Source: Callorhinchus milii (lineage: Eukaryota). From it: a stretch of DNA of 64,000 nt. The position numbers and the translations under genes are program-made. How positions within the stretch are numbered: the stretch's first letter is position 1; every line of letters starts with the position of its first letter. The notes under the pieces are model-generated. The model ran no database searches. It was given only the letters and a program-made list of their open reading frames with translations, and was not told the origin of the DNA. The stretch is taken from contig NW_024704742.1 of the NCBI RefSeq assembly GCF_018977255.1, positions 74,464,001 to 74,528,000 on the forward strand. Direction: 5' to 3'. Positions 2,140 to 45,610 of the stretch are shown here, one piece after another.

Positions 2140-2266
2140 ATTTTCCCAAGATGCTCGAAATCAGAGGGGCCTGAGAGAGAACCTTACGATGTCCAAGAAG
2201 TCAAATATTGGGAAAAGAAATAAAGATTATCCCTCAGGAGAAGAGCACAAGTCGTTCAGTTCAAAG
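2140..2266 (+). CDS. CDKL2: CDKL2 internal coding exon just after the kinase domain: (R)FSQDARNQRGLRENLTMSKKSNIGKRNKDYPSGEEHKSFSSK
   Basis: Acceptor ttcttctgagtag|A, donor AAG|gtacga, phase 2 in and 0 out. Peptide resembles the recalled human CDKL2 segment RFSQE...DARNVSLSKKSQNRK. Confidence 0.8.
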
Positions 2267-2855
2267 GTACGACCAGACACAAGCACTAGTAAAGCAGAGG
2301 TCAGCGGGCACTGAAATAATCCAGTCACAATTTGGGAAAGCTTGCTTGACTTTCTTATAACATTCTTTATATTCATTAATACAAAGGGTTAAGAAAGTTC
2401 TTCCTTTGATTTAATTAATGCCAATCTTCTTTAATGAACATTTGCTGTTACTCAGCTTTGCTCCTGACCTCTGTACCCTTCCAGAGGTCTTGGGACGTCC
2501 TCCCGACGTGAAAGGCACTCTATAAATGGAATCTTGTTGTTGTTGTTCCAGCCCCTCCTCCTTCTCAACACTTTCCTATCATTCCCCACTCCTGCCCTCA
2601 CTCTGAAACGTCTCGAAGACGTGATAAGGGGCTATATCAAATACAAGGATTATTCTTATTATTAATGACTTGTTAATGTTTGTTAATCCAGTATTTTAGA
2701 CAGGGTAAGAAGAAATGTAAATTTATACAATGACTGTGTCCTTTTTCACGGTGCACTGTTAGATAGTGGTTAGTGTGGATGTGCTAAGGACACAGTAATT
2801 GGTTGATCCTTTAGGGGAAGGGCATTGATCTTCTTGTTGTCCTCCCTGAATACAG

Positions 2856-3187
2856 GAGTCAAGTTCTGACGTCAAGACAAAAGAAATTAAATCTGACACC
2901 AAGCTGCTGAAAACAAAACCATCCAAAGTGGAGGCTGGGCAGATGGACCGAGCTTTGAATGACATGAACGAGCGGGCTGCTGACAGTGGAGCTCTGCAGG
3001 GTTTCGGTCCCAGCAAGCTGGTATCCCCTGCACTGCTCAGAGAGCTGAGCAGCAGCATCAATCACACAAGCTCACCACCCAGCAATGGCATCCCTCCTAT
3101 TCCTCAGAACCCTCCTCCTGTCACAACCGCAGGCATCAGGGTCAGCCTGAGCCCTGGTGTCGCTGTGTCAACACAACCCAGCTTCAG
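2856..3187 (+). CDS. CDKL2: CDKL2 internal exon ESSSDVKTKEIK...GIPPIPQNPPPV...STQPSF(R)
   Basis: Acceptor cctccctgaatacag|G, donor CAG|gtgggt, 332 nt open, phase 0 in and 2 out. Resembles recalled CDKL2 ...VAIPPLTHN...QGYR. Confidence 0.85.
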
Positions 3188-4174
3188 GTGGGTGGACCTG
3201 TCACAATAGGAAACAAGGCCATTGCACAATGTTGGTTTGCAAGTGATACATATGGTAACATTTTGGGTTTGACCTTCCCTCAGAATTCACCTTTCTCTGT
3301 CAGATAGTGACTGACCAGCCCGCTGGGCAGAGAAACCTCGATATTTTCAGCTCAGGAGGACCACTGCTGAATTGTGTTTCCAAGTTTCCTTTTGTTTTAA
3401 ATATGAATGCCACTTTCCAGAATTTTTTCCATATCCAGTATTACTTTTACTGCTCAGGTACTTATCCAGTTCTGTTTTAAAATGTTCTATTGATTCAGCC
3501 TACCAACCAGTTACTATCCTCCTAGGGGGAGGTAAACATTCATGAGCTGACAACAGAAATGTTAGACTGGAGCCAGTCCTCTGTGACGGTCTCTAATCCA
3601 GTTCCTGAGGCAGGTGCGTTCACAGTATTCCAAGTCACTGCTGATGACAGCGCAGCCAACCTGGCTCATCTGCAGGACTTGGAAGAGCAGACCAGTCACT
3701 GGGGGCAGGGAATCCTCCCACTCAGCTCCTGTTAACCCTGCAAGCCAAAGCCCTAATGGATAGGGTGGTTCCAACTGGACAAGCAGTGAGAGGTTTGCCA
3801 GACCGTGCTCTCAATAGCTGGTTAGACGACAATACCCCAAAACACTCACTGCAGGCCCCAAGCCTTGGCTTGTGCCTAATACTCTTGAGCATGGTGATGG
3901 ATTTCTGCAGGTATTAGACGCTTCTTTGTGAAGGAACTCAGCATGCTGGGCAACACTGCTTTGTGGCTGACCAAAAAAACTGCAGCTTCGATAGCCACTT
4001 ATAATCAATTCCACATCCTAAAAACTCTCTGAATGAAGAGATTCCTTCTCACCTTTCCCTGATTCCTCTGCTAACAATCCTGAAGTTACCAGGGTCCTCA
4101 CACTATGATGGAAGGAGAAGTTGATGGTGCTGTTATTTAGCACAAACTCTTGTTTCTGTTCCATTTTACTTTAG

Positions 4175-4268
4175 GGTCAACAACAAGTTGAAGAAACACA
4201 TAAACCCCCTGAAAAAAGCAAACCAGCCACCTCCATCCAACTCGCACAGCATGAGCCTGAACGGGCCG
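4175..4268 (+). CDS. CDKL2: CDKL2 internal exon (R)VNNKLKKHINPLKKANQPPPSNSHSMSLNGP
   Basis: Acceptor ccattttactttag|G, donor CCG|gtaagc, phase 2 in and 0 out. Resembles recalled CDKL2 RVDEKTKKCSIPFVKPN. Confidence 0.85.
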
Positions 4269-4589
4269 GTAAGCCAGGGACTCTCCACACGAAGGGCTGC
4301 CTCACAGCAGTATTGCTCAGTATGCTCATTTCCCTCACTAAGCTCTTGTTGCACACTGTTACACTGTGGGCAATCCTTGACTGCCTGCACTCATGTAGTC
4401 TGATCTGGTTCTCGTTATACCCCAAAGGGGAAGAGCTGGGACATCTAACACTGTGCTACTTATCCAATAGACAGAGCTTGCTTCCTCTGCTCCAGGCACT
4501 CATTCCTTTTTTTCTTTCTCTCTTTTCTCCAATTATTCCCTTCTTTGTCTTTGACTTCCTATTCCATCCATGTATAGTTGCGTGTTGGG

Positions 4590-6346: not shown

Positions 6347-6491
6347 GTTCAACATGAGAAACTGGAACGAGCCACAATGATGGAAAGGGTGGGAATCACA
6401 GGCAAGAAGAGGTGGGAGCTCTTTAAATCTGAGAAGGAGGTTCATTTGCTGGCCAACAGCAGTCATCTGCCAGAGCTGAGAGGAGCAGAAG
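6347..6491 (+). CDS. CDKL2: CDKL2 exon VQHEKLERATMMERVGITGKKRWELFKSEKEVHLLANSSHLPELRGAE
   Basis: Acceptor cttcttttag|G, donor AAG|gtaaca, phase 0 in and 1 out. GKKR...HLPELR matches the recalled long CDKL2 isoform. Confidence 0.85.
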
Positions 6492-6539
6492 GTAACAGCA
6501 CGTCCAATTTGACTTTTCTGCAGTACACAAGGTTTTATT

Positions 6540-7130: not shown

Positions 7131-8764
7131 CCAAAACACGAATGGAGAGAACTGGAGCAGAGCATTCAGCAGGACATGCTCAGCGCGCAGGCATGGCGGG
7201 GCGAGGGGAGACAGGTCAGAGGAGGAGAGAGAGGGGAGGGTACTCGTGGCTTTGTTTGGACCAAAGCCAGAGAGGGAGAGAGATAATGAACGGGACGGCA
7301 AAGGAGGAAGTCAGGGATAAGGTAAAAAAAAGAAATGGAAGTAATGTCACGCAGGCAGTTTAAGCGGGAGATTTTGAAATGGCGTCTCCGCGCCAGGAAC
7401 AATCGAGCCTTCGACCACCCACCCCCCACCCCCGCGCCTGTCATTGCCCGCTTGCCCACCCGAGGCCTCATCTGGGGGCGAGAAATTTAAACTATTTCTT
7501 AACAGGGTTCCTTAGTATCAGGAACCTGAGTTGCGGGACTGCTTCTGGTAAATGACAGTCCATCTCACAGACCGGTGGAAACTCTTTTGCATGATTTACT
7601 CCCAGCGGGAATTGTATCAGAATCCCTTACTAAGATATCAGGCAGTTAAGAGAGGATGCACTGTGCTCAGCTGTGCTGAGCTGATTTCCATTTAGGATCA
7701 GTAGAAGTGCTCCAGGTTGTATTTCCATTGAAATAGAGCTATGTTTATTTATTAGTTTTCTAGCCAAAGTAAGACACAGTGTTAAATTCTGTGCAATATG
7801 TGAGTGAAGTACTTGAGACTAGAGCTCCACTTAAAGCTCAGTCATAACCTTGCCAAGCACAAAAGATTCAAATACAGGTTCACAAAATCACGGGGAAGAT
7901 TTGGGTGAAGATCCCCACCCTATCATCCTCCCACCACATCGTTAACCAGTTTTTTTAAACGAGTCCACTGTCCTCAACTTGACCACCATTTCTGCCAACC
8001 TGGTTTAGTTGTTAATTACCCTCTGTAAAAAACACTTATTGTCTAGAACTTGCCCTTTGCAACCCTGAAACTTTGTTCTCATGTAGTCTGCTGTCTGTAC
8101 ATCTGGAGGCATTGTTCTGAGTTTACTTTCTCAATCTTTTTAAAAATGTTATACCCCTCTATAAGGTTCCTTCTGATACATTGCTTGTCAATACTAACTT
8201 GCCCTAGCATGGATCATCCTTGATCATAGCTAATTCCTCTAATACTGGGAGTTTCCTGGTTGCTCTCCTTGCACTGCCCAAGGATCTGGACAGTCCCCAT
8301 TAAAATGGCTACATGGCTTGTTTCTCACTGACACAGCCAGGCAGCAGAAATGGGCAGCAGAGTGACCTTTTTTAAAAAAACAAATCCTCTGAAACGCAGA
8401 ACCAATGGGTGGTTCCCATTCAGACTGTATGGACTCGTCTGCTTGGCACTCCGGAATGCTACCCTGCATGAGCGGCGCTATATAAATGCAAGTTGTTGTT
8501 GTTGTTGTTGTTGCTTCCTTGGTTGAAGTGAGCAGAGCTAAGAGGAGACACGACATGATTGTTGGCAAGAAAGAGAGAAAGAGCTTGGGTTTCTTCAGTT
8601 TTTTGCCATGTTTTGGTGTTCTTGCACTGGGAGAATGTTGCCCTGAGCCTTTCTTTCTCTTTCACCCAAATGAAGCTGAAAGCATCACTGAGGTAGCTGA
8701 TCTTCAACATTTGTCTTATTCCTATTCTGTGAAGGTTAACACTAATGGGTTTGATATTTCCTAG

Positions 8765-8868
8765 CCAAGCATTCTAAACCCAAGAAGGAGAACAAGAGAA
8801 TCCCAGAATCCAGAATTCCCTCTCTGGCTGCCATGGACATACCTCATCAACACAGTCTGGCTTCCCAA
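8765..8868 (+). CDS. CDKL2: CDKL2 exon (A)KHSKPKKENKRIPESRIPSLAAMDIPHQHSLASQ
   Basis: Acceptor gatatttcctag|C, donor CAA|gtaaga, phase 1 in and 0 out. KKENK..ESRIPSLAA.D matches the recalled CDKL2 C-terminal motif closely. Confidence 0.92.
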
Positions 8869-10258
8869 GTAAGAGTCTATATGAAATATGCATCCCCTAC
8901 TCTGGTGAATTGTTACTGCACGTGTTGGGGGGAGAAGGGAAACAACACTGATGAATCAGGAAACAGAAAAAGAGCCAAACTCCATCACTGATACAAGAAA
9001 ATAGCCTTGAGGCCTTCCTTCCAGTGTATCAACATACCGTCATTCTGTTACACCCTCAAGCTCTCTCTTAAATGAGGCCAGGATTCTGACCTCATGCACC
9101 CTTCCTGTTCCTCTCATTGGTTACCCTCTGAGTAAATAAATACTTCCTGCTGTCTATATTGTCTACCCTTTTTGCCTGAGATCAGCTAACACAGAAGAGC
9201 AGAAATTGAACCTAGAATTTTTGACGTGTTTGGCTCAGTATCACTACCCTGAGGTACCAACCTTCTTCAATGGATATTATTGAATATTTATCCCATTCTA
9301 TAGCTTTGGCCGCCACATTTGCCTACAAAATACATAGTCACTACACGTCATGGCAAACCCAATGAAGCAGTTTGAAACATTTTGACAAAATGTGATAAGG
9401 TGTTATATCAAATACAAGGTTATTTTTAAGATTATTTTGAGGGATTGGTCCGTTTCATCAGATTGGCAGAAATATGAAATATCCATCAAATTTCCTTTTG
9501 ATAACTCATTGATTGAACTCAGACTTCATTCCACGACTTAAGAGCACAGAGTTCAGCGCTGGCTGATAGGAAACTTGGGTAAAGAATCAGGGAAGAGATT
9601 GAAAACAATTTGTTCATTCACAGAGTTGTCAGGTTTGTGGAATTCATTGTCACAAGTGGCTATTGAGGCCAGATTAATTGAAGTATTCAAAAGGGAAAGG
9701 AAAGCATCTGAGCAGTAAAATCACTGGGATATAGGAGAGAGCTGGAAAACAATATTAATATAGTACTTAAAAAAAAGATAGTTTAGAAAATCAATGGTCT
9801 GAATGACTACCTTCTGCACAGAACATTTCTATTTTTAAGGAAGAAAAAGTAAAGTAAGTCTGATATTCACACTCTGTAAAATAATATAAATCCTTAGATT
9901 TGATAGAGCCTTTCATGTAGGGAAAACCCCCCTAAAGTGCTACTCACGTTTACTGTAAAGTGCAGTGACTGTGAGTTTTGTGTTTTGCCACAATAAATTC
10001 CAGTTCCTTGATTCCCTGTCAAACTGCTTTTCCTAAAAAGAAAAACACATACTGGAAATGAGAAATAAATCCTAAATGTGCAGAGGGTCGATCAGCCCCT
10101 GATAGTCACTTCGGGTGTGACTCAGGAGAGGTTCACTGACTGACCTCTCTGAATAATCACACCTGACTTCCCTTCAAGCTTGGACTGACCTGCTGTTTAT
10201 TTCCAGAATTTCAATTTATTGATTAGCATTTCTGACAGGTTTTTCACTCTATTCCCAG

Positions 10259-17771: not shown

Positions 17772-20715
17772 ACAACAACAACAACAACAACAACAAGATT
17801 CCATTTATAAAGCGCCTTTCACGTCAGGAGGACGTCCCAAGGCGCTGCACAGTTGGGTCATGACCCGAGCAGGGGGAAATGGTCAGGGTGAGGGGAGGGA
17901 GGGAGCGAGGAGGGGGGAAATGGTCAGGGTGAGGGGAGGGAAGGGAGGGAGAGAGGAGGGGGAAATGGTCAGGGTGAGGGGAGGGAAGGGAGGGAGCGAG
18001 GAGGGGGAAGAGAGTCGAGAGGGGAGCTGAAGGCTCGGTCAAAGAGAAAGGTTTTGAGACCGGCCTTGAAGGAGGAAAGGGAGGAAGCGGCGAAGGCACT
18101 GGGGGATGGAGTTCCAGAGCCTCGGGGCTGAGAGGCTGAAGGCCCGACCACCGATGGTAGGGCGGTTGGGGCGGGGGACGTGGAGCAGACCGGAGCCAGA
18201 GGAACGGAGGGTACGGGCAGGTAGGTAGGGGGATAGTAGGTTGGAGAGGTAGGAGGGAGCAAGGCCGTGAATGGCCTTGTAGGTGAGGATGAGGATCTTG
18301 AAATCAATCCTCTGGGGGATGGGGAGCCAGTGGAGGCGAGCGAGGGTGGGAGTGATGTGGTCCCGAAGCCTGGTGCGGGACAGTACACGAGCTGCAGAGT
18401 TCTGAATGACCTGCAGCTTGTGGAGGGAGGTGGCGGGAAGGCCGGCGAGGAGAGAGTTCCCATAGTCCAGCCTTGAGGTGACAAAGGCGTGAACCAGGGT
18501 TTCAGCAGCGTGAGGGGTGAGGTAGTGCCGTAGTCTGGCGATGTTCCGGAGGTGATGGAAGGCGGTGCCAGTTGTGGTGCGGATGTGAGGGAGAAAGGAC
18601 AGCTCAGGGTCGAACAAAACGCCGAGGTTCCTGACTGGCTTTGAGAGGTGGAGAGTGCAGCCTTGGATGCTGATGGTGTCAGCGCCTGAGGTGCGGAGGC
18701 GCTGACGTGAGCCAATCAGGAGGGCCTCGGTTTTTCGCACGTTGAGCTGAAGAAAGTTGTCTCTCGTCCAGGACTCGATGTCGGACAGGCAGCTGTCAGG
18801 ACATCGGTGGTCGTGGAGTTGAGAGTAGAGGAGGAAAGGTAGAGTTGGGTGTCATCCGCATACATGTGGAAGTTAACTCCATGTCTGCGGATGATGTCAC
18901 CGAGGGGGAGCATATAGAGGGTGAAGAGGAGGGGACCGAGGACAGAGCCCTGAGGGACACCACATGAGACAGTGCGGGGGGTGGAGGAGAAGCCATTCGT
19001 CGAGACAAGTGAAGACGGTGAGAAAGGTACGACCTAAACCATTCAAGGACAGTGCCTTGAAGGTTGAGGTGGGAGGACAAGCGGTGGAGTAGGATAGCGT
19101 GGTCGACCGTATCGAATGCTGCCGATAGGTCGAGGAGGACGAGGAGACAGAGGGAGCCCTGGTCACAGATGGTCAGGATATCATTGGTGACCTTGACCAG
19201 GGCAGTTTCTGTGCTATGGGCAGCACGGAAACCTGACTGAAGGGGTTCGAAAAGAGAATGGGTGGAAAGGAAAGAGCGCAGTTGGGAGGCGACAACTCTT
19301 TCCAAGACCTTGGAGAGAAAGGGGAGGTTGGAGATGGGCCGGTAGCTTGATAGCTGCGACGCATCAAGGGAGGGTTTTTTCAGGGTGGGCGTGATGATGG
19401 CAGTTTTTAATGGAATGGGGACAGAGCCAGAGGAGAGGGACAGGTTGATGATGTCAGTGATATGTGGGGCAAGAAAATGGAGCTGGGAGATAAGGAGTGG
19501 AGTGGGGATGGGGTCAAGGGAGCAGGTGGTTGGTTTTAGGGATAGGATGAGTTCAGTGACAGAGGGTGGGGAAACGGGTACGAAGGTGTGTAGGGGAGGA
19601 TGGGTAGGAGTCGGAGTGTGGGAGGGAAGGGGTGGGTGGTGGGTGGAAGTTGGAGGGGAAGTGACCGCGGAGCGGATTCCCTTGATCTTGGATTCAAGGA
19701 AATCCAGCATCTCCTCGCAGTGAAGGTTGGAGGAGATGACCTGCGCGGGGTGGCGGGGGGGACGGAGGAGTCGGGTTGTGGTGGAAAACAGTAGCCTGGG
19801 GTTGTTCTTCGCCTCCAGGATTATCCTGGAGTAGAAGGACGACTTGGCCGAGGCTAGAGTGGAGCGGTAAATTTTGAGGAGGTCCAGCCAGATTTGTCGG
19901 TGGACCGTTAGGCCAGATTTGACACAGGTGCGTTCAGCAGCCCGCACCTGGCTTTTCAGTGAGCGGAGGTGGGTGGTGTACCAGGGGGAGGAGCGGGAGT
20001 AGGAGACAGTGCGGGAAGTGATGGGGGCAAGAGTATCGAGTGTGGAGGAGAGGGTATTGTGGAGGAGGGAGAGAGGAGAAGAGGGGTCGGTGAGGGTTGA
20101 AGGCCAGAGGGAGAGGAGTTCAGAGGACTCCAAGGCATCGGTTAGGGATTGTGGGGGTAACTTCTTCCAAGGGCGGTAGAAGATGGTGGTGGGTCTGGTG
20201 GAGGTGGGGAGGGGGGTGGAGGTGGTGAAGGAGATGAAGTAGTGGTCAGAGATGGCCTTGTCGGTAATAGTGACATCCGAGACACTGAGGCCCCGGGTGA
20301 TCACCAAATCGAGTGGGTGGCCGTGACTGTGAGTGGGGGAGTTTATGTGTAAGGAGAGGTTGAGTGAGGAGAGCAGGGAAGAGAAGTCTGTGGAGATGGA
20401 GCAGGAGGGGGTGAAGTGTAGGTTAAAGTCGCCCAGGATGATGAGGCGATCGGAGCAGAGGCAAAGAGATGTGAGGAGTGTTGAAATGTCAGAGATGAAG
20501 GTGGGAGAGGTTTTAGGGGGCCGGTAGAGGAGGAGGATTTTAAGGGAGAGGAATGAGGGGTGGGAGAGGGTGAGGTGCTCAAAGGAGGGGAAAGAGCCAG
20601 TGGAGTAGGGGGATAGGGCAAGTGGTGTCCTTGAGATAAGGGCAACACCACCGCCACGGCGGTTGGGGCGGGGGATGTGGTGGGAGGTGTAGCCGGGTGG
20701 CGTGGCCTCCGTGAG
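17772..20715 (-). mobile_element. L2-clade LINE, about 2.9 kb, 5'-truncated within the endonuclease domain, ORF2 frameshifted
   Basis: APE remnant (GGGVALI, GDFNLH), RT motifs [30 protein letters not shown] and [11 protein letters not shown]-terminal LHWLPIPQRIDFK, and a (GTT)n tail. Confidence 0.95.
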
Positions 20716-22219
20716 GTGGGATGCGTGGAAATCTCAGCTCGGTTTGGATACTCTTAAGACTGGGGATGGGTTTCCAGCTGACCCAAAACAAAACTAAATT
20801 CTGACGTGCCAAGATCTCAAGAGTTACAGGTGAAAAAGGCTCTTTGGCTCATTTGTTCCCCCCAATCCCAGCATTAAAGCTGCTCCATACCAGTTCAGTG
20901 TTATGGCCTCCAGCCCTAGCTTATTTTAAGGATGAATAAGAGGCACCTTTCTATATCTAATTATTATTATAATTTAATTGTAATTTAAAAATAATAAAAT
21001 AAATTTACAAATAATTTGGTTGTTTTCTGTTCCACAAGTATTGAAAGCCAAACAAAACAGCAATCCCACACTCTGCGGAAGATTTCTTTCATTAATATAT
21101 TTAATAATAAAACTTTCTAATTATTATCATAATCCTCCAAATAAAACTGGTGACTCACTTCATGGCTTTTTAGGGGACACTGCTGTGTGCAATTAGGTGC
21201 CATGTTTGCCCACAAAATACACAGTCAATCAACTTCACAGTAAATGGAGTTCTCCCGATGTGAAAAGATGTACAGAAATGCAAGGATAATTATTATCTGA
21301 CAGATTACGTTGTCACAATACAACAGCTGAACTCCCCATGCAGCAGCATGATTATTGGCAAGGTTATTTCTCTAGGGATTGCTACTGCAGCGTATTATCA
21401 ATATCAACAGCAGAGAGGGTGATGATTGTGCAATGAAGGCGGGGTAGCAGACAGAGCTCTGTGACTTCGAGCCATTGCTATTTTGTACTCACAAGTCAAC
21501 TAAAGAGTGCCTACAGTGAACTGTGCTTTTAATTACAGGGTTTCCGAAAATAATTTTTATTTATTTGATCAAAAATGTCCCAAATTTAAGTAACTTGGAG
21601 TCGTAATCTTCTTATTATTGTGGTTCCAACTAGTTTTAAAACTTGGAATAATGACTATGGAGAGCAGGGTGTGTGGGCTGCGGTGCACTGCATCTGACTG
21701 ATGATGCCTGTTTACTGCCTCTTTCACATCCATTAGTCAACCAGAAAAAATTCTTTCTGCAGTAGGTGACATTGCTCTTTTTGTTTGTCTCTCAGCACTT
21801 GTGGCAACAGAAAATAATCAAACAAAGACACAAAATAAGACTGAAAGAACTTTAGTAATAACAATACTTGTCAAAATGTGAAGTTCAAATTCAAAAATTG
21901 AGAATTCAAAAAGAGGGCAATAATTATAAATGAAATCAAAATTCAAAAGCAAGGCAAATAAAGTTTTGTAACAACAACTTTCACAAACGAAACATTTTGG
22001 AACATCTTTAAGGATTCGATTAGAGATGTACACGCTTTGAGGGTTTTGAAAACAAGGAGAAAAAGTGTAAGGTGAAAAGATATTAAGAGAGCTTCAGAGA
22101 GCGAGGCTTCTTGGCTGAAGGCGTGGGCACTGGTAAAAGGGATTGAGATTGGGATGAGATAGTTAGTGGAGTATATGGGCAAGAGTTAGACCTGGCGAAA
22201 ACTGCAGAGACAGATTTTT

Positions 22220-29257: not shown

Positions 29258-29868
29258 AAGATGTAGGAGCAGGAGTAGGCCATTTGGCCCTCAAGCCTGT
29301 CCTGCCATTTAATACGATCATGGCTGATCTTCTAACCTAATTCCATTTACCTGCCCTATCCCCATATCCCTTAATCCCTCTATCCTTTAGAAATCTATCA
29401 ATCTCAGTCTTGAATATGTTCAAAGACTGAGCACCCACAGCCTTCTGGGGTAGAGAATTCCACAAATTCACTCCCCTCTGAGTGAAGAAATGTTTCCTCA
29501 ACTCAGTTCAACAAGGCTGACCCTTAATATTGAGACTATGACCCCTAGTTTTAGATTCTCCAATGGGGGAAACAGTCTCATGGCATCTACTCTGTCAAGA
29601 CCCTTAAGAATTTTATAGGTTTCTATAAGATCTCCTCTAATTTTTCTATATTCTAGAGAATATAGACCTAGTTTACTCAACCTATCCTCATAGGTCAACC
29701 CCTCATCCCAGGAACCAACTAGTGAATCTGCGCTGCACCCCCTCTAAGGCGAGTATGTCCTTTCTTAAATAAGGAGACCAAAACTGCACACAATATTCTA
29801 GGTGCGGTCTTACCAAGGCCTTATACAATTGCAGCAAGACTTCCCTACTCTTGTACTCTAATCCCTTT
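29258..29868 (-). mobile_element. CR1 3' fragment
   Basis: YEDRLSKLGLYSLEYRKIRGDLIETYK. Confidence 0.9.
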
Positions 29869-30310
29869 TTTCATGGCTCCTGGGCATATATCACTGTCCT
29901 TTGATGGGTCAAAGGAGATAACTTTTTGGTCAGAAACAGACAGGCATCTCTGTCCTAATTAAGCAGTCAATTGTCACACATTTGCTCCAGCACATACCAA
30001 ACTAATCTGCTTATCCAATTAACAGTACCAGCTAACTACATCTTCCCATCCTCTGCATGAACTTTCGTGCTCTCTCCTTCACAGTCTAGAGACTGTGGAT
30101 GCAGTCTTTGACGATACCTCATAAAAGTTACTTAACTGCCTCTTCTAAAACACATTACAAAATGCTTGTTTAACACAACATTCAATGCACCAACAAATAT
30201 GATGATCCGCAGTTCATCTAAGTTTTTCAATATCATCAATTCTGGAACAAGATCTTTCCCACTTAGATTATTAAAATGCAAAGGAAACAAAGACATGATT
30301 TCAACAAAGC

Positions 30311-30331
30311 TTTATTAAAGTTACATTTATT
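30311..30331 (-). terminator. Tandem AATAAA polyadenylation signals of the repeat-protein gene
   Basis: tttatt at 30311-30316 and 30326-30331 on +. Followed on - by a GU/U-rich element (catgtctttgtttcctttg). Closes an AT-rich 3'UTR of about 1.55 kb. Confidence 0.65.
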
Positions 30332-31856
30332 AAAGTTGCATTCTAAAGTGAAATATATATTCATGATATAGTCATGATAGTAAGTCAACAGCCACCATTT
30401 GGCCATTCTCCTTTGAATTAACTCCTGATAATTCATTCATTGAGAATAGAGCAATTGATTTTACTTAGAGCAAAATGTAACATGTATTGATGTATATCTG
30501 TTGTTATTGCATTGTATCTTAATATAATCATACCTGGAGATAAATCCAATGATGTGGCTACTAACCTCTTCAGGCAAGATCATCAACACTAATGAAGAGG
30601 CTCAGAAAACAACAGCACTTTTGCAATACTTGCTGATGATTTTAAGACATTTACTCATGCAGTTATAATATATAATGTGGCTTTTCTACACCAAACGTTT
30701 ACCCTGTTTGCTAAATGTGAAATACCTTACCCGAAGTTACGTTATATAGGATACACCCTGAAATGGCTGATTCTACCTGCACACCCAGCTTGTGGCTAGT
30801 TGCACTTTTGCAAACAATCTTTCCCTAATTGGCTGGCATAAACGTGTCAAATGCAAATTTTAAATTGCATAATTGACCAGATTTTATAATACTTGCGAAT
30901 ATACCAAAGGAGGGAAGTCATTATCAATGTATCTATAATATAGAAAATTATTGCATTCAGTATTAATTAGGAAAAACAGTTATTTCTAACTGAAAAATCA
31001 AGTTTCAAATTAAAACTAAATTTAACAATTTTCCACAATTCTGCACAATTTGAAACCTTAAGACAAAATGATCAGTTTGATCTATTTCTAAAATGTGGTT
31101 CCCTCAAGAATTGTAATGTGATTCCATATCACAACATGCTTTTACAGGCTAAAACTAGATTGAGGATTCCTAACAGTTGATAAGAATGTAGAAAACAAGT
31201 ATTCATTTAGATACATATCAAATTGTGAACCGACAAAACATTTTATACTTGAAGGAGTTTAATTTAGTATTAATTTATGTATCGATTACATTTCTGAACA
31301 TTAATTTGTATTTGAAGAAACACTTTCACATGTGATACATATTCAAATGTTCTTCTTTGTTTTTTTTTAAAAAGCAATCGTCCAGTTAAACAGAATGGCA
31401 ATAGAGTTAAAGTCATCAAACAACTATTTTAAGTGTTCAGAACTCAGCTGCTAAAAGAGAGGAAGAGTCAAGATGCAATTAACCCTCTAATCATATACTA
31501 GCACAAGGTGACAGAAAGAATATTCCTGGCAACATTTTTAAAAAGTCCAATAATTTGCACTTTAATATATCTGTAATTTATATGCCAATTTGCTTTAAGA
31601 ACTGATCTGGTGATTACTTTCTTTCTACTGGTAATTTAGAGGCTGAAATTCCTCTTGTTGTTATGTGTTAAAGGTTGGTGATGAATGCTTATACTGGATT
31701 TTTAAATTGAAACTCAGTGACAAGAGGAATGTCTCCCCTTAAAACATTATTCAGTATCTGCCACTAAAACTAGCAATCATACAGGTATTGTTACTGGCTC
31801 TTGATTTACAAGATACTGGCTAATCTGGCGAGGTCAAGGGAACAGTTGAACTGGAT

Positions 31857-33567
31857 TTAATTTGGCAATTTATTATTTTTTCTAGAAAGGAACCTATATC
31901 GATAATTTGGGTGTAATCTATAATAATACAGTTTTTTAAAAGCAGAGGGATAATTCACACCAGCAATTGTATTCTGACTCTTCTCTGATTCTGACACCAG
32001 ACTAGATCTCTCATATTTCCCATTATCCTCATTAGTTTGACTATTAGATCCATACTGACTATGTTTATAATTATAATCAATATTCTGGATCAGATCAGAG
32101 TCGTAGACAGTACTTTGTGTAACTTTCCCATTGCCATATTGGTCATATTTGCTATTTTGTATTGGCTGATCATTTTGCTCATTGATTTTTGTTTCTTCCA
32201 TATTGCCATATTGGTCTTGCTGAATACTTTTCACTCCTTGACTAGTGTCTTGTGTTTCTTGTCCATTTCCATATGGATCATAGGTATTACTTTTCCCTCC
32301 TTGACCTTTGCTATAAGGATCATATTGAGTATTTGTCACCAACCCATTAATGTCATATTGGTTGAGTTGCTCTGTCTGAATGTTACTATATGAATCATAT
32401 CCATTGCCTTGATTATTGCCATATGGGTCATATTGCCTGCCTTTCAGTCCATCAGTCGTACCATATGGATCATATTGATTGGCTTCTTCTCTCTGACCAT
32501 TACCATATGGATCATACCCACTGCTTTTTATTCCCTGACTAGTGCCATATGGGTCATATTGACTGCTTTGTGTTTCCTGTGCATTGCCATTTGGATCATA
32601 TACATTGCCATTTGGATCATACCCATTGCCTTTTATTCCCTGACTGATGTCATATGGGTTATATTTAGATTTTTGTCCATTGTTATAGGGATCATACCCA
32701 TTGCCTTGCATTCCATGATGAGTGCCATATGGGTCATATTGACTCTTGTGTATTTCCTGACCATTGTTGTATGGTTCATATCCATATCCTTTTATTCCTT
32801 GACTAGAGCCATATGAATTGTATTGACTGCCTTGTGTTTCCTGTCCATTGCCATATGGGTCATATCCATTGCCTTTTATTCCCTGACTAGTGCCATATGG
32901 GTCATGTTGACTGCCTTGTGTTTCCTGTCCATTGCCATATGGGTCATATCCATTGTTGTATGGATCATACTCATTGCCTTTTATTCCCTGACTTGTGCCA
33001 TGTGGATTGTATTGACTACCTTGTGTTTCCTGTTCATTAGCATTTGGATCATACCCTTTGCCTTTTATTCCTTGACTAGTGTCATATGGGTCATATTGAC
33101 TACCTTCTGTTTCCTGTCCATTGGTGTATGGATCATACCCATTGCCTTTTATTCCTTGACTGGTGCTATATTGGCTGCCTTGTCCAGTCTGACTGCTTGC
33201 TTCTACCTGACTACCTTCTGCCTGACTGTTACTGTATGGGTTATACCTATTGCTTTTCAGGAGCTGACTAGTGTCATAGGGGTGATCCTCACTGCCTTGT
33301 GCTTTCTGCCCATTGAGATCTGGGTAATTTGTGCTGGTTTGTGTTTCTTCCCATTGTTATATAAATTGACATTGCCTTGTGTGTCCTTCCAGCCTTGGGA
33401 TTTTGAGTGAGAGGAAGGTTGTAAACTGTCCAAATTTGGTCTTCTTTTGTTGTTGGGAGATCTTTGGTAGGTTCCGTGTTTGAGGATTGGTGCAAATATT
33501 CTGCTGTAATGGCAGCGCCGGGCCCTAGATCGGGGCATGTGGTAAACCTCCGCTCCCTTTTGTAATT
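31857..33567 (-). CDS. Exon 2 of a secreted Tyr/Gly/Asn/Gln/Asp-rich tandem-repeat protein (ODAPH-like candidate), with a 1-nt frameshift at 33350-33352
   Basis: Acceptor ttttgttttgtag|AA is phase 1 and in frame with exon 1 (ELQKGAEVYHMPRSRARRCHYSRIFAP...). The repeat frame is open from 33350 to TAA at 31857 and includes track ORF 31857..32711. Adding one G to AATGGG|AAGAAACA gives NGEETQ and a 593 aa ORF. Confidence 0.8.
32200..33170 (-). repeat. Coding minisatellite, about 84 nt (28 aa) unit SQGIKGNGYDPYGNGQETQGSQYDPYGT, about 9 good copies plus degenerate ones
   Basis: Recurrent gccttttattccctgactagtgccatatgggtcatattgactgc on the + strand. Each unit is two roughly 14 aa halves containing YDPY. 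Confidence 0.9.
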
Positions 33568-34071
33568 CTACAAAACAAAATAATTGTAATACAACTTTTG
33601 CAGCTAACTATATTAGCAAAGCTTCAAAGGTCAGATGAAACCAGCGATTTACAGTTATTTTTCTGAATTCTTGCCAAATTACACAATATTATAGGGATCA
33701 CTAATCCAACACAACTGCTTTATAAGTAAAATATAGGTTCAGAGTTTGACACTAATCAATGAGCACTCATCGGTGATTTTACTTCTTGGTTGGACACCAC
33801 TTTCAGATCTACTGGCGCTTATGATTTCACGAAGGAAAATGAGCATGACATGACATACTCAATGGCTTTTGTTTTCAGAAATTGAGACAGATTATGGAGA
33901 TTTAATTGACTGAAACAATGGCCTTGCAAAGTAGCACATTACTGTACTAATGTAGCTTAATAGAATGCTAGGTTGAAGGATTTGAGTTCTCAATCTCAAC
34001 AAAGACATCAGGGGACACTGGGACAAGTGCTTTACCAGAGGAAATAAAATTAGTGAATAAGTAACCTAATC

Positions 34072-34380
34072 TTAAGAACATAAGAAATTCTAGATGAAAA
34101 AAGACCAAGACCCATCCCCATCTAGTTCGCCTTCCACCTTCCTGGCGGTCACATGCATATATGTCCCGATTTACCTATGTCTGTATCCTATAATGTTATT
34201 TCCTAAAAGAAAACTATCTAATCTGTGTTTGAAAGAATCAACACTTCCTGCTTCAACCATCTCCCGAGGGATCCTGTTCCACAGGTTCGCTATTCGCTCA
34301 CTAAAATAGTGTTTGCGTAGATTTGTTCTGAATTTACCCCCTTCAATTGCAGGCCATGTCCTCTGGTAATCACCACCCAC
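34072..34380 (-). mobile_element. CR1 3' fragment
   Basis: RKHYFSERIANLWNRIP and 3'UTR. Confidence 0.85.
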
Positions 34381-35109
34381 TTAGAAGGATTTCTAAAAGC
34401 TAAATCTTTCTACTGAGTCACCCTATTAATGATGTTCCAATAGGGAGCACCGTCTGGAAAACTTTCCAGCTTGCACCAACGTACTTATTTAGAGCTTTGT
34501 TTGCAGCATGAACAAGAGCTGACTGGTGGAGTCTGTCATTTCAGGTATTACTGATGAGTCAGGTTGGCTGAAAGAAGTCTAGCGCTTGGTTAAGACTTTA
34601 ACAATTTCTATGGTTCTGTGAACTAGATTTAAGATTAAATAAACAAATAATACTTGCATTTGATATAACGCCTATAACATTGAAAGATCACAAAGCGTTT
34701 CAGGGTTAATTGCTATAAAGTGAGTGACCTATATTTGTAAGCCAGACCAGTGGCCAATTTGTCCTTAGCATTGTCCCACAAACAGCTTGGTGGGTATACG
34801 TCTCATGTAAAGCCTGGTACCTCTAACATTGCAGCATTCCTCCAGCACCTCCCTCAAGTGTCAGCCCTGGTCGAGGAGCTCAAAGTCAAAGATTGAAACC
34901 ATTAGTCTGAGATGAAGAGAAAATGAATGAATGTTCTTTTGAGAATTCTGGTTCCGACAGCCATGATCAGGAGAGATGTAAGGAAGACTTTCAGGATGAT
35001 TTACTTACTTTGGTGTTTTGATCCTTTCATCTTTGCTTGCTGACATTCTGGAAGCTCTGGATAGGCTGTACAGTTTTTATCACGGGTTTTGATTGTAGTT
35101 TCATGATTA

Positions 35110-35700
35110 AGAACTAGGAGGATAGAAGAGATGCAGGAGAAATATATTCCATTAAGAAATAAGGGGAAATTAATAAATAATGAGATGCCATGGATGAATA
35201 AGGAGGTGAAGACAAAACTGCAACAAAGTAAAAAAGCATTTGAAAATTACAGAATTATAATAGAGAGGAAAACAGAAGTGAATACAGCAGACTTAGAAAC
35301 GAGGATAGGTTAGTCCTTTTTCACTGGAGAAAAAACCTTTAAGGGGGCATGTAATAGAAGTACTGAAAATCATAAAAGGGTTTGATAAGGGTGACATAAA
35401 TAGGCTGTTTCCACTGGTTGCGGAATCTATAACCAGAGGAAACGAGTAAAAGATAGTGACTAGGGGATCAAAAAGAGAATTTAGGAGGAACTACCTCATG
35501 CAGAGAGTAGTGAGAATGTGGAACTTGCTGCCTGAAGCAGTGGTTGAATCAGTTAGTATAGATGCATTCAAGAGGAAGCTAGACTTCAGAGGAGGGAAAG
35601 GGGAAGAGAAGTGTAAGGGATGAAGTAAGGATTGGTTGGTGACTCCTGTGGAGTATAAACACTGGCATGGACTGGTTATGCTGTACATTCTGCATAAATC
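35110..35700 (+). mobile_element. Internally deleted CR1 fragment
   Basis: QEKYIP...PWMNKE segment joined to RVVRMWNLLP-like 3' DNA. Confidence 0.7.
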
Positions 35701-35921
35701 TTTCAAAATGTTACTATTATTTTGTGGGAACAATTCCGATTCAGTTGTGTAGTGTTTCACCTCCTGATTTTGTTCAATTAACTCTGCTGAAAAAGGAAAG
35801 AAACCAGTGATAGCTTTCTTTCTAATAATGCCTCCTTAATGCGCATACAGTGAAATTCTAGGCATTAACTCTCGTTCATTTAGTGTTGACTGATTCTTAT
35901 TTTTTGCATAGGTTTAGGCCT

Positions 35922-36478
35922 AGGTTTAGGCCTCAGTTAGAATACAGCGCCCAGTTCTGGGCACCACACTATAGGAAGGATGTTAAAGCATTGGACAGGG
36001 TGCAGGGGAGATTTACAAGAATGGTACCAGGAATGAGGGACCTTGATTATGAGGAAAGGCTAAAGAGGCTGGGATTATTCTCATTGGAGCAGAGAAGGTT
36101 ACGAGGAGACCCAGTAGAAGTCTTCAAAATCATGAGGGGATTTGATAGGTTAGAAAGGGAAAAACTGTTTCCACTGTTGGGTGTCGGTGACTCGAGGTCA
36201 CAGATTCAAAATAGTCTCTAAAAGAAGCAGAGAGGAGGTGAGAAGAAATGTTTTCACGCAGCGAGTTGTTCAAGCACTGCTTGAAAGGGTGGTGGAGGCC
36301 GATTCGATAACTACTTTTAAAAACTCGGTGGACGGGTACTTGAGGAGGATGGTTTGCAGGGTTACGGGGAAGGGGCTGGGGAGTGGGATTGACATTACAT
36401 TGCTCTATTCAAAGAGCCGGCACAAACTCGATGGGCCGAATGGCCTCTTTTGTGCTGTACGATTCTATGATTCTATGA
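35922..36478 (+). mobile_element. CR1 3' fragment
   Basis: RPQLEYSAQFWAPHYRKDV and an (ATTCTATG)n tail. Confidence 0.9.
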
Positions 36479-37123
36479 AACCCCAAATAAATGTTTTTCC
36501 ACTAGTGGCTCAAAACAGTAATTAAATCAATCCATATAGTTTTGTTTTATTTGGCCTTAGATCTCATTAAAAGGACATTGACTTCCAAAAAAAGCCAATG
36601 CTTCTCAGTACTGTATTGAAGTATCAGTATCGACTTTGAGTTCATGTTGCCCATTTTAATGTTGTCTCAGCACCTTGGGACGTCCTCCTGACATGAAAGG
36701 CAACTGTAATTTTGTATTTTATTGTATGTTGGTTTAACCTTCTTTTATAAAACGTTAAATATTTCTAAACAAAACAAAATTGCTGCAGAGAGTCAATGAA
36801 TGCCTTACAGAAATTAAACTTAAAAGACAGTGGAGTGAATTACAAAGCAATAACCCACCCCAGGGTTGAGACAGTTCTCAAATATCAAAGCATTTATTTT
36901 CATTTCAACCCAACCAGAATGCGTTACTGATCTGCATCCTTTATATTACATACAAATATAACAATGTTTAGCTGTTTTCTATCTACTTTGATATTTTATT
37001 GCAATGAAAATGTTGTCACACAAAGCAATATTTTGCTCTTTGGCATTTGCACCCACAGCACAGGAGTACAAAGCTACCGACAAGTAATAGTTCTCAAATA
37101 TCAAAGCATTTTAAGCATTTTGT

Positions 37124-37429
37124 GGAGTCCTGTAGCTCAGTGATTAGAGCACTCGCCTTGCAAGTGAGACACCTGGGTTCAATTCCAGGCAGGGCGAAAC
37201 CTTGGGCAAGTTTCCTTACTCCACACGCCTAATAATAATCCCTCCAAAAAAACAAACAAAAAAATTGGCTATTTTCAATCCATGACTGTTTGTGGGACAT
37301 TGCTGTGTGCAATTGGCTGCCGCGTTTCGCCCACAATTATACAGTCACTTTGCAGTATATTCTGTAAAGCGCTTTGAGACATGTAGAAGATGTGAAAAGT
37401 GCTATATCAAATGCAAGGATTATTATTAT
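37124..37429 (+). mobile_element. tRNA-SINE copy
   Basis: Homologous to 422-747. Confidence 0.9.
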
Positions 37430-37439
37430 AAGTTGCTTG

Positions 37440-37900
37440 GTACCCTATCACCCCCACCGTTGACCAACTCCACTGGCTCCCCAACCCCCAGGGGATAGAG
37501 TTCAAAATCCTTGTCCTCGCTTTCAAAGCCCTCCACGGCCTTATTCCTCCTTACCTCTGTGACCTGCTAGCCCCATATCAACCTGTCTGTTCCCTCCGCT
37601 CAGAATGCTTCAGCCAGCTCCATGACCCTGCCCGGCCCGGCCCACCATCAGCCTCTCTGCCCCCACACTTTGGAACTCTATCCCATATTCCCTTTGCCTC
37701 GCTCCCTCCCTTGCCTCCTTCAAGGCACCTATCAAGACCCTCCTCTTCGACCGCACCTTCGGTCACCCTCCTGCCCTCCCTGCCCTCCACACCCCCCCCC
37801 ACCCCGATACCAAACCCCACCCCCTACTTGCGTTCAAATCCTGGACTGTCCAGCGCCTTGGGATGTGCTCCTGTGTGAACGGTGCTATACAAATATAATT
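37440..37900 (+). mobile_element. Degenerate L2 3' fragment in the intron of the repeat-protein gene
   Basis: LHWLP..EFKILVLAFKALHGL-like DNA and an L2 tail. Confidence 0.8.
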
Positions 37901-38487
37901 TTGAATATTGTATTGTAAGTAATACAAACCAATTAGACCATTGGTATGAAAAATAATGTCACTGTTTTATGAATACACTGAAGAACTTTCTGGATATTCA
38001 TACTAATTATGTACACCAACATTTCAACCTCTACCCCAAAACAAAGTTTTCTTTGAAGAGAATGTTATTTCAAAGGAAAGTGTCTCACAGTAAGATTTAT
38101 AACAACAACAAATTACATTTGCATTGCGCCATTCACGTCGATAGGACATCCCAAGGCGTTGGATAGTCAGGGACTGTCTGGTAAAATACAATGGATTTTT
38201 CCCGTAACATTCGGAAAAATTTACTTATTTACTGGAAATGATTAGTTCAACAAAGCTGCATAATCTTTCTGAGGCCTATTTCAAAACAAATAGGTACATT
38301 TGTGGAATATAATGCTGAACAAATTAGCTATTGAGGTCTTAAGTGAGACTTTCTAATATTCCCATTTACAACCATGCACATCAAAAAAAATATGCAATTC
38401 CTAAAAGCAACTTTGAAATTTCAATTTGAGTGTACAAATTGCTAGTGAACCTAGCAAGGGTTAACTGAGAGCACAGTAGATCCTTAC

Positions 38488-38557
38488 CTGAAGACAGGGT
38501 CATAATTTGTAAGCTGATGAGAACAAAGAGCGTGAGCACAGTGGCTGTAGGGTCCAT
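38488..38557 (-). CDS. Exon 1 of a secreted repeat protein (ODAPH-like candidate): signal peptide MDPTATVLTLFVLISLQIMTLSS
   Basis: Strong Kozak context GCCATGG, 23 codons plus 1 nt with a hydrophobic core, consensus donor CAG|gtaagg (phase 1), TATA box about 38 nt upstream. Confidence 0.85.
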
Positions 38558-38594
38558 GGCTGAAATGTAATCCCAGTGAAGAGCTCAGCTGGTG

Positions 38595-38672
38595 TTATAT
38601 AGAGGTACATGACATACATTACACTCCCTCATAACCTTAAACCAATAATTAGTGTGCATAAGGTACCAATCA
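38595..38672 (-). promoter_or_regulatory. Proximal promoter of the repeat-protein gene: TATATAA plus two CCAAT boxes
   Basis: TATATAA on the - strand at 38601-38595; CCAAT on the + strand at about 38642 and about 38666. Confidence 0.6.
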
Positions 38673-39234
38673 CACAATCACAGACGTTGCAATTTAGCCT
38701 AGAGATCTGTACTTTCTTCCAAAAGCCAAGATTTCATGACTTCCAGTGATAAACACATCATTATTCTCTCTGTACATCAGTTTTCATTTGGCTTTTTAAT
38801 AGAAAACATGCTGCCCTAGCATTTACATTGTGCCATTGTTCTTACGCTATATAGTAATTTATACTGTGGTACAGGGAATTTACACTTTGAAGATGTACAT
38901 TTTCATTATATATATGTTTGTATTGTGGGATCTTCATTATATATGTTTACATTTTGCCCACAAAATATACAGTCAATTCACTTTACAGTATATTCTGCGA
39001 AGGCTTTGAGATGTCCCAAAGATGTTATAAGGCGCTATGTCAAATGCAAGGATGATTATTATTATTATTTCTATCTACAGTTGCATTGAAGGATGCCCAG
39101 GCTCTATACAAATTTACACAATCTTTCTATGCCCCATTTTCTCCATTCTTGGTCAGCTAGGACCACCATACATGTCAGGCCTTTGGCTTGCAGGTTTAAC
39201 AGGAGCTGAAGGTGGTAGACTGCAAAGCTGAACA

Positions 39235-40070
39235 GAACAGGTTACAGGAGGACTTGAACATACTTGGGAATATGGCAGATTGATGGCAGATGAAATTTAA
39301 TGCAGAGAAATGCAAAGTGCTTCATATGGGGACAAACAATCCAAGAAGGGACTATTATTTAAATGGCAAGAAAATAATCTGAAAGAAAAAGGACCTGGGG
39401 ATCCTGATTGACAATAAATTGAAGCTATCGCAACAGTGCTCGGTAGCAGTGAGTAAAGCAAACCAGATGCTAGGTTGTATAAAAAAGGCAACATTGAGCC
39501 AAAAGAGTGGGGTAATCCTGACACATTACAAATCACTGCTGTTTGCAGTTCTTGTCACCGAAATACAAAAAGGATACTGTAGCAATTGAGAGGATACAGA
39601 AGAGGGTAACCAGAATGATTGAGGGGATGGAGGGACTGGACTATGAGGAGCGATTAGGTATACGGGGCATGTTCACACCGGAGAAGAGAAGGTTGAGGGG
39701 CTATATGATTGCGGTCTTTAAGATTCTAAAGGGACTAGATAATGTAGACCATGATAAGCTGTTTTATCTTGCACTGAACAGTAGAATCAGAGGACACGGC
39801 CTGTGACTCAAGGGGGTTCAATTAAAATAAATCTGCAGAAAAACTACTTCAGTGAGTGAGTAGTAAATGTATGGAACAGGTTCAGTAGGGAAACGGTGGA
39901 AGCAGAAAGTTTTGATTCTTTCAAGAACAAATTAGATGGATTTCTATTAGGAAATAATATCTCGGAAAGCAGTTTATAGTTTGGGACATGACACATTCAT
40001 ATGACTGCCAAGATGGAGGAAGGTGAACTGGATGAACCTCGGTCTTTTGTTTAGCAATTCTTATGCTCTG
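39235..40070 (+). mobile_element. CR1 fragment about 0.7 kb upstream of the repeat-protein gene start
   Basis: WQMKFNAEKCKVLH-like DNA and ERIQKRVTRMIEG...RGHGL. Confidence 0.9.
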
Positions 40071-43976: not shown

Positions 43977-44595
43977 GTAGATCACGGTCACCATGCTGTA
44001 ATAAAGCCAACCTTTGACGGAAATGGGAGGACAGGGTGTTGCAGAGTTTCTCCTAATCACGATGACTCAGCCAACTCCCTTATAAATGCAGTAGAAATAA
44101 CAGGGATCAGACAAATTTACATTCTGTCAAATTGCTACCTCATTTTTTCAGCTTGTAAATATTCATCCAGTTATGATGTACATCTAAAAAAAGTCACTGA
44201 GTTCAGTGTATCCTAGTCATTCAAAACAATTAACCTGAGGCTTAAACTCATGCTGTTTTATCTACAGTGATACTGCCAACCGAAGCGGGTAGAATTCTAT
44301 CAATTCAATGTAAGTGTAAGGTACCTAATTTTGGGTTCACAATAACACAGCAACCGTAAATTTATGTGTCAAAAGTCAATTTGTTTTTTTTTACAAAAAT
44401 TATGTGGTGAAAAGGACGTGCTAGGATAGTGTATTTTAAGATGTTTTATAAGTGTGTACACAGTTGAAGTGGGCCTTTAAATACACAACTCAAATAGATA
44501 AGATACCAAATAGAGTAAAACTCCATTATAATGCAATAGTTTGGATCCATGAAATCCCATGTCCCTGATCGCTGGTCAGCAATTCTTTAAGTTCT

Positions 44596-45068
<473 letters not shown>

Positions 45069-45610
45069 CAGGACGGAGTCTGATCATCAAGACGAGATGA
45101 GAAAAACTGAAAACAAAATATATCAAAAACAAGGGGAAAATCAAGAGCCTAAAGATCCTAGAAAGTTTCAGATAGTAAAACCAGACAACCAAAATACAGT
45201 GGTGGAACAAGAGGTACTGGTAGGAACAGATAATTGTGATGTGGTAGGAATCATATGACTAAACCAGAATGATGAAAGAGAATATAACTTAATTCAGCAC
45301 CCAGACAATACTTTAGGATGCACCAAGCCAGTGGAAAAAGAAGATGTAAGTTTGGAGTTGCAAAGAGTGATTTCAGAACAGATAGGGAAGTTTTTCTTTA
45401 CCCAGAAGGAAATTAATGACTGGAACAGGTTACTAGGAAGAGTAGTTGAGGCCAGGAAACTGGACTAATTTAACAAGCAGCGTAATGCTGTGCTGGGACG
45501 ACAGTAGAGTAGGTATTCTGTCGGGATGGTATTATACAATCCCAATAACCTTCTTCATCCAAATCAATCTTGTGAAGTTCTTGTTCCACAACCGTGTACA
45601 GGTATCACCA

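Follow-up and report, generated by a model that had tools for sequence, protein, structure and literature searches.

A candidate gene for a tyrosine-rich secreted protein downstream of CDKL2 in Callorhinchus milii, at the position held by ODAPH in bony vertebrates

ODAPH (C4orf26), the gene for an enamel-maturation phosphoprotein of bony vertebrates, is expressed in dental epithelium at the maturation stage. Odaph has been reported in alligator, lizard, caecilian, gar and reedfish, and is found downstream of Cdkl2 (PMC7807025). In non-mammals the gene has three exons and two phase-1 introns, and in mammals it has two exons; the protein carries an SSEE phosphorylation motif and has two or three cysteines, of which exon 2 encodes one and exon 3 the remaining one or two, whilst the human form is 130 amino acids long with a signal peptide of 23 residues (PMC7807025). 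It does not belong to the secretory calcium-binding phosphoprotein (SCPP) genes, the introns of which are all in phase 0; cartilaginous fishes are said to lack SCPP genes, and the oldest ODAPH reported is that of the ray-finned fishes (PMC7807025). Here we describe a candidate gene from the chimaera Callorhinchus milii that lies on the minus strand of a 64,000-nucleotide (nt) window of genomic DNA (contig C1, NW_024704742.1: 74,464,001–74,528,000; coordinates given without a contig name are positions in this window). It lies downstream of CDKL2, as ODAPH does in bony vertebrates; its descent from that gene is unproven. The locus probably represents a genuine orphan gene that encodes a secreted protein and is masked in the assembly by a one-base gap, and there is about an even chance that its product is an intrinsically disordered protein of approximately 593 residues, encoded by a single-copy two-exon gene and belonging to no described family. 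A search of the literature returned no paper linking ODAPH with sharks in a relevant way.

Repetitive, tyrosine-rich structural proteins that cross-linking hardens are known from several animals, among them lamprey lamprin, the eggshell precursors of trematodes and the egg-capsule prepolymers of elasmobranchs. The predicted product resembles these in having a signal peptide, a high content of both tyrosine and glycine, short tandem units and no stable fold, but no sequence relation to them was found, and its YDPY unit with Asn/Gln-rich spacers could be assigned to none of them. The SCPP genes for enamelin, ameloblastin and ODAM provide a second comparison: they too encode fast-evolving, disordered and repeat-prone components of a secreted matrix, and they too keep the signal peptide on an exon of its own. 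The candidate differs from them in its intron, which follows 70 coding bases and is thus in phase 1, where SCPP introns are in phase 0 (PMC7807025), in having no acidic Ser-x-Glu cluster, and in lying outside any gene cluster, with flanks made up of transposon fragments only. With ODAPH the candidate shares a signal-peptide exon of approximately 23 residues followed by a phase-1 intron, a convergent position just downstream of CDKL2, and, behind the signal peptide, a basic stretch that includes cysteine.

An earlier, sequence-only reading of the window had described promoter boxes, a signal-peptide exon, a phase-1 junction, splice sites and an AATAAA signal, and all of these are present on the minus strand where it had placed them. 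Two inverted CCAAT boxes (ATTGG, 38670–38666 and 38646–38642), to be taken as consensus look-alikes, stand 5′ of a TATATAA box (38601–38595), which is itself 38 nt 5′ of an ATG in a gccATGg context (38557–38555). From this ATG the coding part of exon 1 (38557–38488, 70 nt) runs through 23 hydrophobic codons and one further base, and the intron is therefore in phase 1. The donor, CAG/GTAAGG, matches the consensus (junction 38488/38487, GT at 38487–38486) and opens a putative GT..AG intron of 4920 nt (38487–33568); this would end at 33568 with a strong, pyrimidine-rich acceptor (ttattttgttttgtag), placing the start of exon 2 at 33567. The promoter and exon 1 show no differences in the DNA contigs that span 38144–38976 in three samples (X2, X3 and X4, all from one study). 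When both strands of the window were scanned strictly for mini-exons (an ATG followed by 15–40 open codons that include a hydrophobic core, and a donor agreeing with the consensus at 8/9 positions or more), exon 1 was the sole candidate; a looser scan returned eight candidates on the minus strand and three on the plus strand. Towards the 3′ end, two AATAAA hexamers (30331–30326 and 30316–30311) form a putative distal poly(A) signal, and another AATAAA (31874–31869), 10 nt before the stop codon, may act as a proximal one. The putative intron is packed with high-copy fragments of short and long interspersed nuclear elements (SINEs and LINEs), and contig depth is very high over 33842–34843 and 35846–38183. 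Extremely high-copy repeats that resemble tRNA-derived SINEs were observed at 36848–37515, inside the intron, and at 38852–39185, just 5′ of the promoter; their summed contig depth reaches up to millions, and they are the source of thousands of false contig joints.

In the window as it stands, the coding parts of the gene do not join. The frame that enters from exon 1 carries the N-terminal protein string to which the sequence-only reading had drawn attention, and it meets a TGA at 33259–33257, giving a product of 126 amino acids of which 23 are signal peptide. The C-terminal string of the same reading is the end of a 499-codon open reading frame (ORF) of YDPY repeats (33356–31860, closed by a TAA at 31859–31857), which lies in another frame. 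Since the two strings stand in different frames, the window holds no intact two-exon ORF; the gene that had been described as complete, with two exons of which the second is large, is present in its exon parts, but these are unjoined, with 126 amino acids in one frame set against a 499-codon ORF in the other. Between 33356 and 33260, on the minus strand, both frames are open, and one added base anywhere inside this zone joins them; by arithmetic, the joined frames would amount to 70 + 1708 + 1 = 1779 nt, or 593 codons.

Comparison with the contigs of X2, X3 and X4, made over 29500–39500, points to a base of this kind. Those contigs that cover 32926 and the positions after it each exceed the window by one letter, with 1177 letters for 1176 positions in X2 (32926–34101), 1192 for 1191 in X3 (32926–34116) and 497 for 496 in X4 (32926–33421), the last of which gives the narrowest interval for the extra letter. 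The X4 contig over 33423–34101 is gap-free, and at 31020–32555 the three samples differ from the window at one to three positions, with no gaps. The other DNA samples show single-base variants at 32708, 33035 and 33364: two alter a residue of the repeat frame (Q>K in 3/3 samples and E>Q in 2/3), and the one at 33364, found in one of the three, is synonymous in the N-terminal frame. If counted on the contig, the ‘from_end’ figures for the variants at 33035 and 33364 agree with an insertion lying between the two. From 33245 downwards the reference ORF keeps its 14-codon register without a fault, so a missing base would be unexpected inside the repeats; nowhere but in the frame-break zone does the reference look out of register. 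The extra base probably sits in 33260–33356. Inside the zone, where runs of identical bases are three to four long, the site that would agree best with the repeat consensus is a G run at 33352–33350, and the longest run is one of C at 33282–33279, each being a candidate only. The window would then be short of one base in or near 33356–33260, either because of an error in the assembly or because it carries a frameshift allele. Two routes by which splicing might change the frame were considered. A second, short intron was rejected, as among 21 GT..AG pairs of the right length the best donor scored 6/9 and the acceptors were weak. An alternative acceptor at 33321–33320, which would take exon 1 straight into the repeat frame, is unlikely: as read from the sequence, its pyrimidine tract is poor, and it would skip the entire N-terminal region.

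After its signal peptide, the joined product would begin with a short and strongly basic N-terminal region, encoded by the start of exon 2 in the frame of exon 1 (33567–33357), that contains an RSRARR dibasic site and the only cysteine of the candidate; the isoelectric point (pI) of this frame is 11.3 over 102 residues. Approximately 26 acidic YDPY-type units follow (33245–32241), set 14 codons apart and alternating between YDPYGNGQETQGSQ and YDPYGTSQGIKGNG; the YDPY pattern itself has 27 matches, one of which (QEIH) is not a unit. A non-repeat C-terminal part with a basic tail rich in tyrosine and arginine (32240–31857) then continues up to the TAA stop. Taken as a whole, the 499-residue ORF has a pI of 4.66, a grand average of hydropathy of −1.61 and no cysteine, and is made up largely of glycine (67 residues, 13%), tyrosine (60, 12%), glutamine (59, 12%) and asparagine (55, 11%). 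Proline accounts for 27 of the 499 residues (5%), so the repeat ORF is not proline-rich. A single-sequence AlphaFold2 prediction, which is weak evidence, had a mean predicted local distance difference test score of 37 and gave no secondary structure and no confident fold.

Judged from the DNA sequence, the evidence that the repeat frame is translated is good, though not decisive. Ten of the 12 tandem-repeat rows lie inside the ORF, and the periods of all ten (21, 42, 84, 105, 189 or 273 nt) are multiples of 21 nt, and hence of whole codons, with insertions and deletions at 0–6%. Over the 17 in-register units, the ratio of non-synonymous to synonymous difference (pN/pS) in the open frame is 0.48 for the 10 type A units and 0.56 for the seven type B units, and three of the four shifted-frame controls gave 1.00, 1.21 and 1.52. 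The two other frames contain 14 and 73 stops, a single-base change to the ORF creates a stop in 6.1% of cases, and the open frame runs on through approximately 125 non-repeat codons at its 3′ end. The 111 observed differences, when thrown randomly on the two unit consensuses, left the frame open in only 55 of 20000 simulated runs. The gene is single copy in the 0.99-Gb genome; six weak genomic matches were considered as paralogues and rejected as satellite arrays.

Several points weigh against the view that this is a translated, functional gene. The simulation treats changes as independent. The fourth shifted control (type B units, shift 1) has a pN/pS of 0.60, as low as the real frame, and a tandem array will to some extent propagate an open frame of its own accord. 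The extra base is placed only within 32926–33421, and if it fell outside 33260–33356 the ORF would be broken in all samples. Among the sequencing runs listed for the locus none is recorded as RNA, and the joint 38488/33567 was not seen among the 15 of 4567 contig joints listed, all of which were repeat-driven. Searches for relatives were likewise negative: a word-indexed protein search scored 8000 candidates for the 499-residue ORF and found no homologue, and the same search with the 102-residue N-terminal frame gave one candidate and no match; phmmer against 1.84 billion representatives produced 16 matches at E ≤ 0.001, and the 10 examined were all unrelated repeat proteins; the ESM Atlas had no usable match for the candidate protein; and hmmscan of four pieces of the locus against Pfam found no families at E ≤ 10. 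The libraries searched do contain shark and chimaera proteins, as shown by their CDKL2 matches, and because no homologue was found in them there is no evidence of conservation. Finally, the function suggested below would be read from composition alone. In sample X1, the RNA origin of which is a guess, 5% of the sampled words were found along with one contig of 171 letters (32920–33090); depth is low and confined to the bins of 31838–33841, with nothing at exon 1 or at 31504–31837.

The sequence-only reading had taken the candidate for the chondrichthyan counterpart of ODAPH, an orthologue that has diverged strongly. By that account the gene would have kept its place and its phase-1 exon, lost the SSEE sequence and the cysteine pattern, and gained a large insertion of tyrosine-rich repeats; it is a possibility that we hold with more doubt than confidence. 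The order of genes gives it most of its appeal. The head of USO1 (C1: 74.350–74.364 Mb, minus strand), a G3BP2-type NTF2 exon (C1: 74.417 Mb, plus strand), the start of CDKL2 (C1: 74.448 Mb, plus strand) and the candidate on the minus strand stand in one row, which is the human order read backwards. Downstream of CDKL2 the candidate is the first gene that can be recognised, and the two are convergent, so that the proposed tail-to-tail arrangement is borne out in orientation and order; the CDKL2 coding end at 8988, however, lies 21 kb from 30290, and the gap to the candidate is 21–23 kb. On the other flank the proposed synteny breaks down. In the human order, RCHY1 and PARM1 sit beyond the ODAPH slot, whereas here a zf-CHY exon of RCHY1 type (C1: 73.842 Mb, plus strand) and a PARM exon (C1: 73.925 Mb, minus strand) are found on the USO1 side of the USO1–G3BP2–CDKL2 block (exons and block together spanning C1: 73.84–74.50 Mb), the former 0.62 Mb away and on the opposite side of CDKL2 from the candidate, and no THAP domain occurs within 1 Mb of the locus. 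Synteny with the G3BP2, CDKL2 and USO1 side is therefore all that is retained of the proposed arrangement, which had THAP6 or RCHY1 as the next neighbour, and the position of the RCHY1- and PARM1-type exons implies a rearrangement breakpoint near the candidate gene. A phase-1 junction after the signal peptide is common among secreted-protein genes and discriminates little, so the case for orthology is mainly one of address.

The protein itself does little to strengthen that case. The signal peptide of 23 residues equals that of human ODAPH, the N-terminal region is basic with a cysteine soon after the signal peptide, and the non-eutherian gene is placed downstream of Cdkl2 with phase-1 introns and outside the SCPP genes (PMC7807025), all of which would suit descent from ODAPH. 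A genome-wide search with the Pfam profile for ODAPH, PF15848, gave nothing above the 27-bit cut-off and six matches at E ≤ 10, the best of them at 21.5 bits on contig C18; the weak matches on C18 and C3 were rejected as ODAPH, being a zinc-finger-like exon and an unrelated ORF. As far as this profile can see, then, the genome holds no better ODAPH than the candidate; yet the candidate locus is itself without a match, both in the genome-wide search and by hmmscan (E ≤ 10), within the reach of that profile to fish ODAPH. All six frames of the window are free of S(2+)E(2+) strings. The candidate has one cysteine, in its N-terminal region, against the two or three of ODAPH, and two exons against the three of non-mammals, with no credible second intron given the poor donors and acceptors of the 21 pairs above. 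At 593 residues against some 130 it is approximately 4.5 times longer, and it is dominated by 26 tyrosine-rich repeats in place of proline-rich sequence. Chimaeras are not known to make enamel, and ODAPH is reported to decay in enamel-less mammals. The claim of orthology thus retains its position and its phase-1 signal-peptide exon and loses the Pfam profile, SSEE, the cysteines, size, proline richness and the THAP6/RCHY1 side; resting on position, it is best regarded as tentative. If the gene does descend from ODAPH, which seems somewhat unlikely, a non-SCPP enamel-maturation gene would have been present in the jawed-vertebrate ancestor, and a lineage lacking both enamel and SCPP genes would have remodelled it into a large matrix protein of tyrosine-rich repeats, a rare traceable instance of a mineralisation gene that has changed its chemistry and kept its address. 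An ODAPH-like first exon in the ODAPH slot of a chimaera would offer a concrete and cheap test of whether an enamel-matrix gene predates the bony vertebrates.

It is improbable that the locus contains no working protein gene, either as a decayed, frameshifted gene or as a minisatellite that has amplified an open frame, a chance ORF resembling a signal peptide lying upstream of it. The frameshift in the window's own sequence, the lack of homologues, the density of transposon fragments in the flanks and intron and the one shifted-frame control that is equally low in pN/pS would all sit well with decay or chance, but neither explains why the non-repeat codons beyond the array stay open, why so few simulated arrays kept their frame, or why the unit lengths are always whole codons. 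Nor would chance readily supply a unique exon 1 with a TATA box, Kozak context and consensus donor, 5 kb 5′ of the repeats, sharing their strand and compatible with them in phase, and three other samples carry the one additional letter that the frame needs. That the window is correct as it is, encoding a short, basic secreted protein of 126 residues with the repeats in its 3′ untranslated region, is very improbable: this length is near the 130 amino acids of human ODAPH (PMC7807025) and the variant at 33364 is synonymous in the N-terminal frame, but the last 30 or so residues come from reading the first repeat unit out of frame, the repeats' coding signatures would be left without an explanation, an extra letter is present nearby in each of the three other samples, and PF15848 finds no match.

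If the locus is an orphan gene for a secreted, tyrosine-rich protein, as it probably is, its product would be exported and may serve as a component of an extracellular matrix or coating. The tyrosines, flanked by aspartate and proline, could act as cross-linking or binding ‘stickers’, possibly through dityrosine or DOPA-type (3,4-dihydroxyphenylalanine) cross-links, or through sulfated tyrosines that bind cations, whilst the basic ends might anchor the protein to an acidic partner. The YDPY-repeat product would accordingly be a candidate component of a hardened or adhesive chimaera secretion. With one base missing from the assembly, such a gene would escape gene callers.

Between CDKL2 and the candidate, a LINE family was the only one recognised, minus-strand ORFs of 9–30 kb having been partly scanned; a LINE-type element at 18799–20733 on the minus strand, with neighbouring pieces over 17827–20848, encodes an endonuclease and a reverse transcriptase in an open frame of 645 codons. 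Beyond the candidate, from 38.6 to 64 kb, the 139 ORFs contain no true Pfam family, and transposon fragments and a simple repeat are all that was recognised there. The simple repeat, approximately 700 nt long (44529–45258), is open in all six frames and reads (RQTD)n or (LSVC)n; a Pfam match to PFF1_TM on it was below the cut-off and was dismissed as spurious.

Upstream of the gap, tblastn with the protein named in UniRef as Callorhinchus milii CDKL2 placed the last five coding exons of CDKL2 on the plus strand at 2093–2266, 2853–3188, 4170–4322, 6347–6493 and 8764–8988. The exons in or beside the window are 87–100% identical to that protein, save for a stretch of 72% at 2093–2266. Against the PDB, the CDKL2-type kinase exons scored 122.8 and 118.9 bits with human CDKL2, and 76.5 and 106.1 bits with CDKL3. 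The last exon was matched by 78 of 120 CDKL2 proteins, and none of the 120 matched beyond 8988. CDKL2 residues 266–303 and 271–337 match L012:8309–8422 and window positions 2093–2266, at 87% and 72% identity, respectively; two matching places for this part of the protein, where the kinase domain ends, suggest that exons are duplicated or used alternatively.

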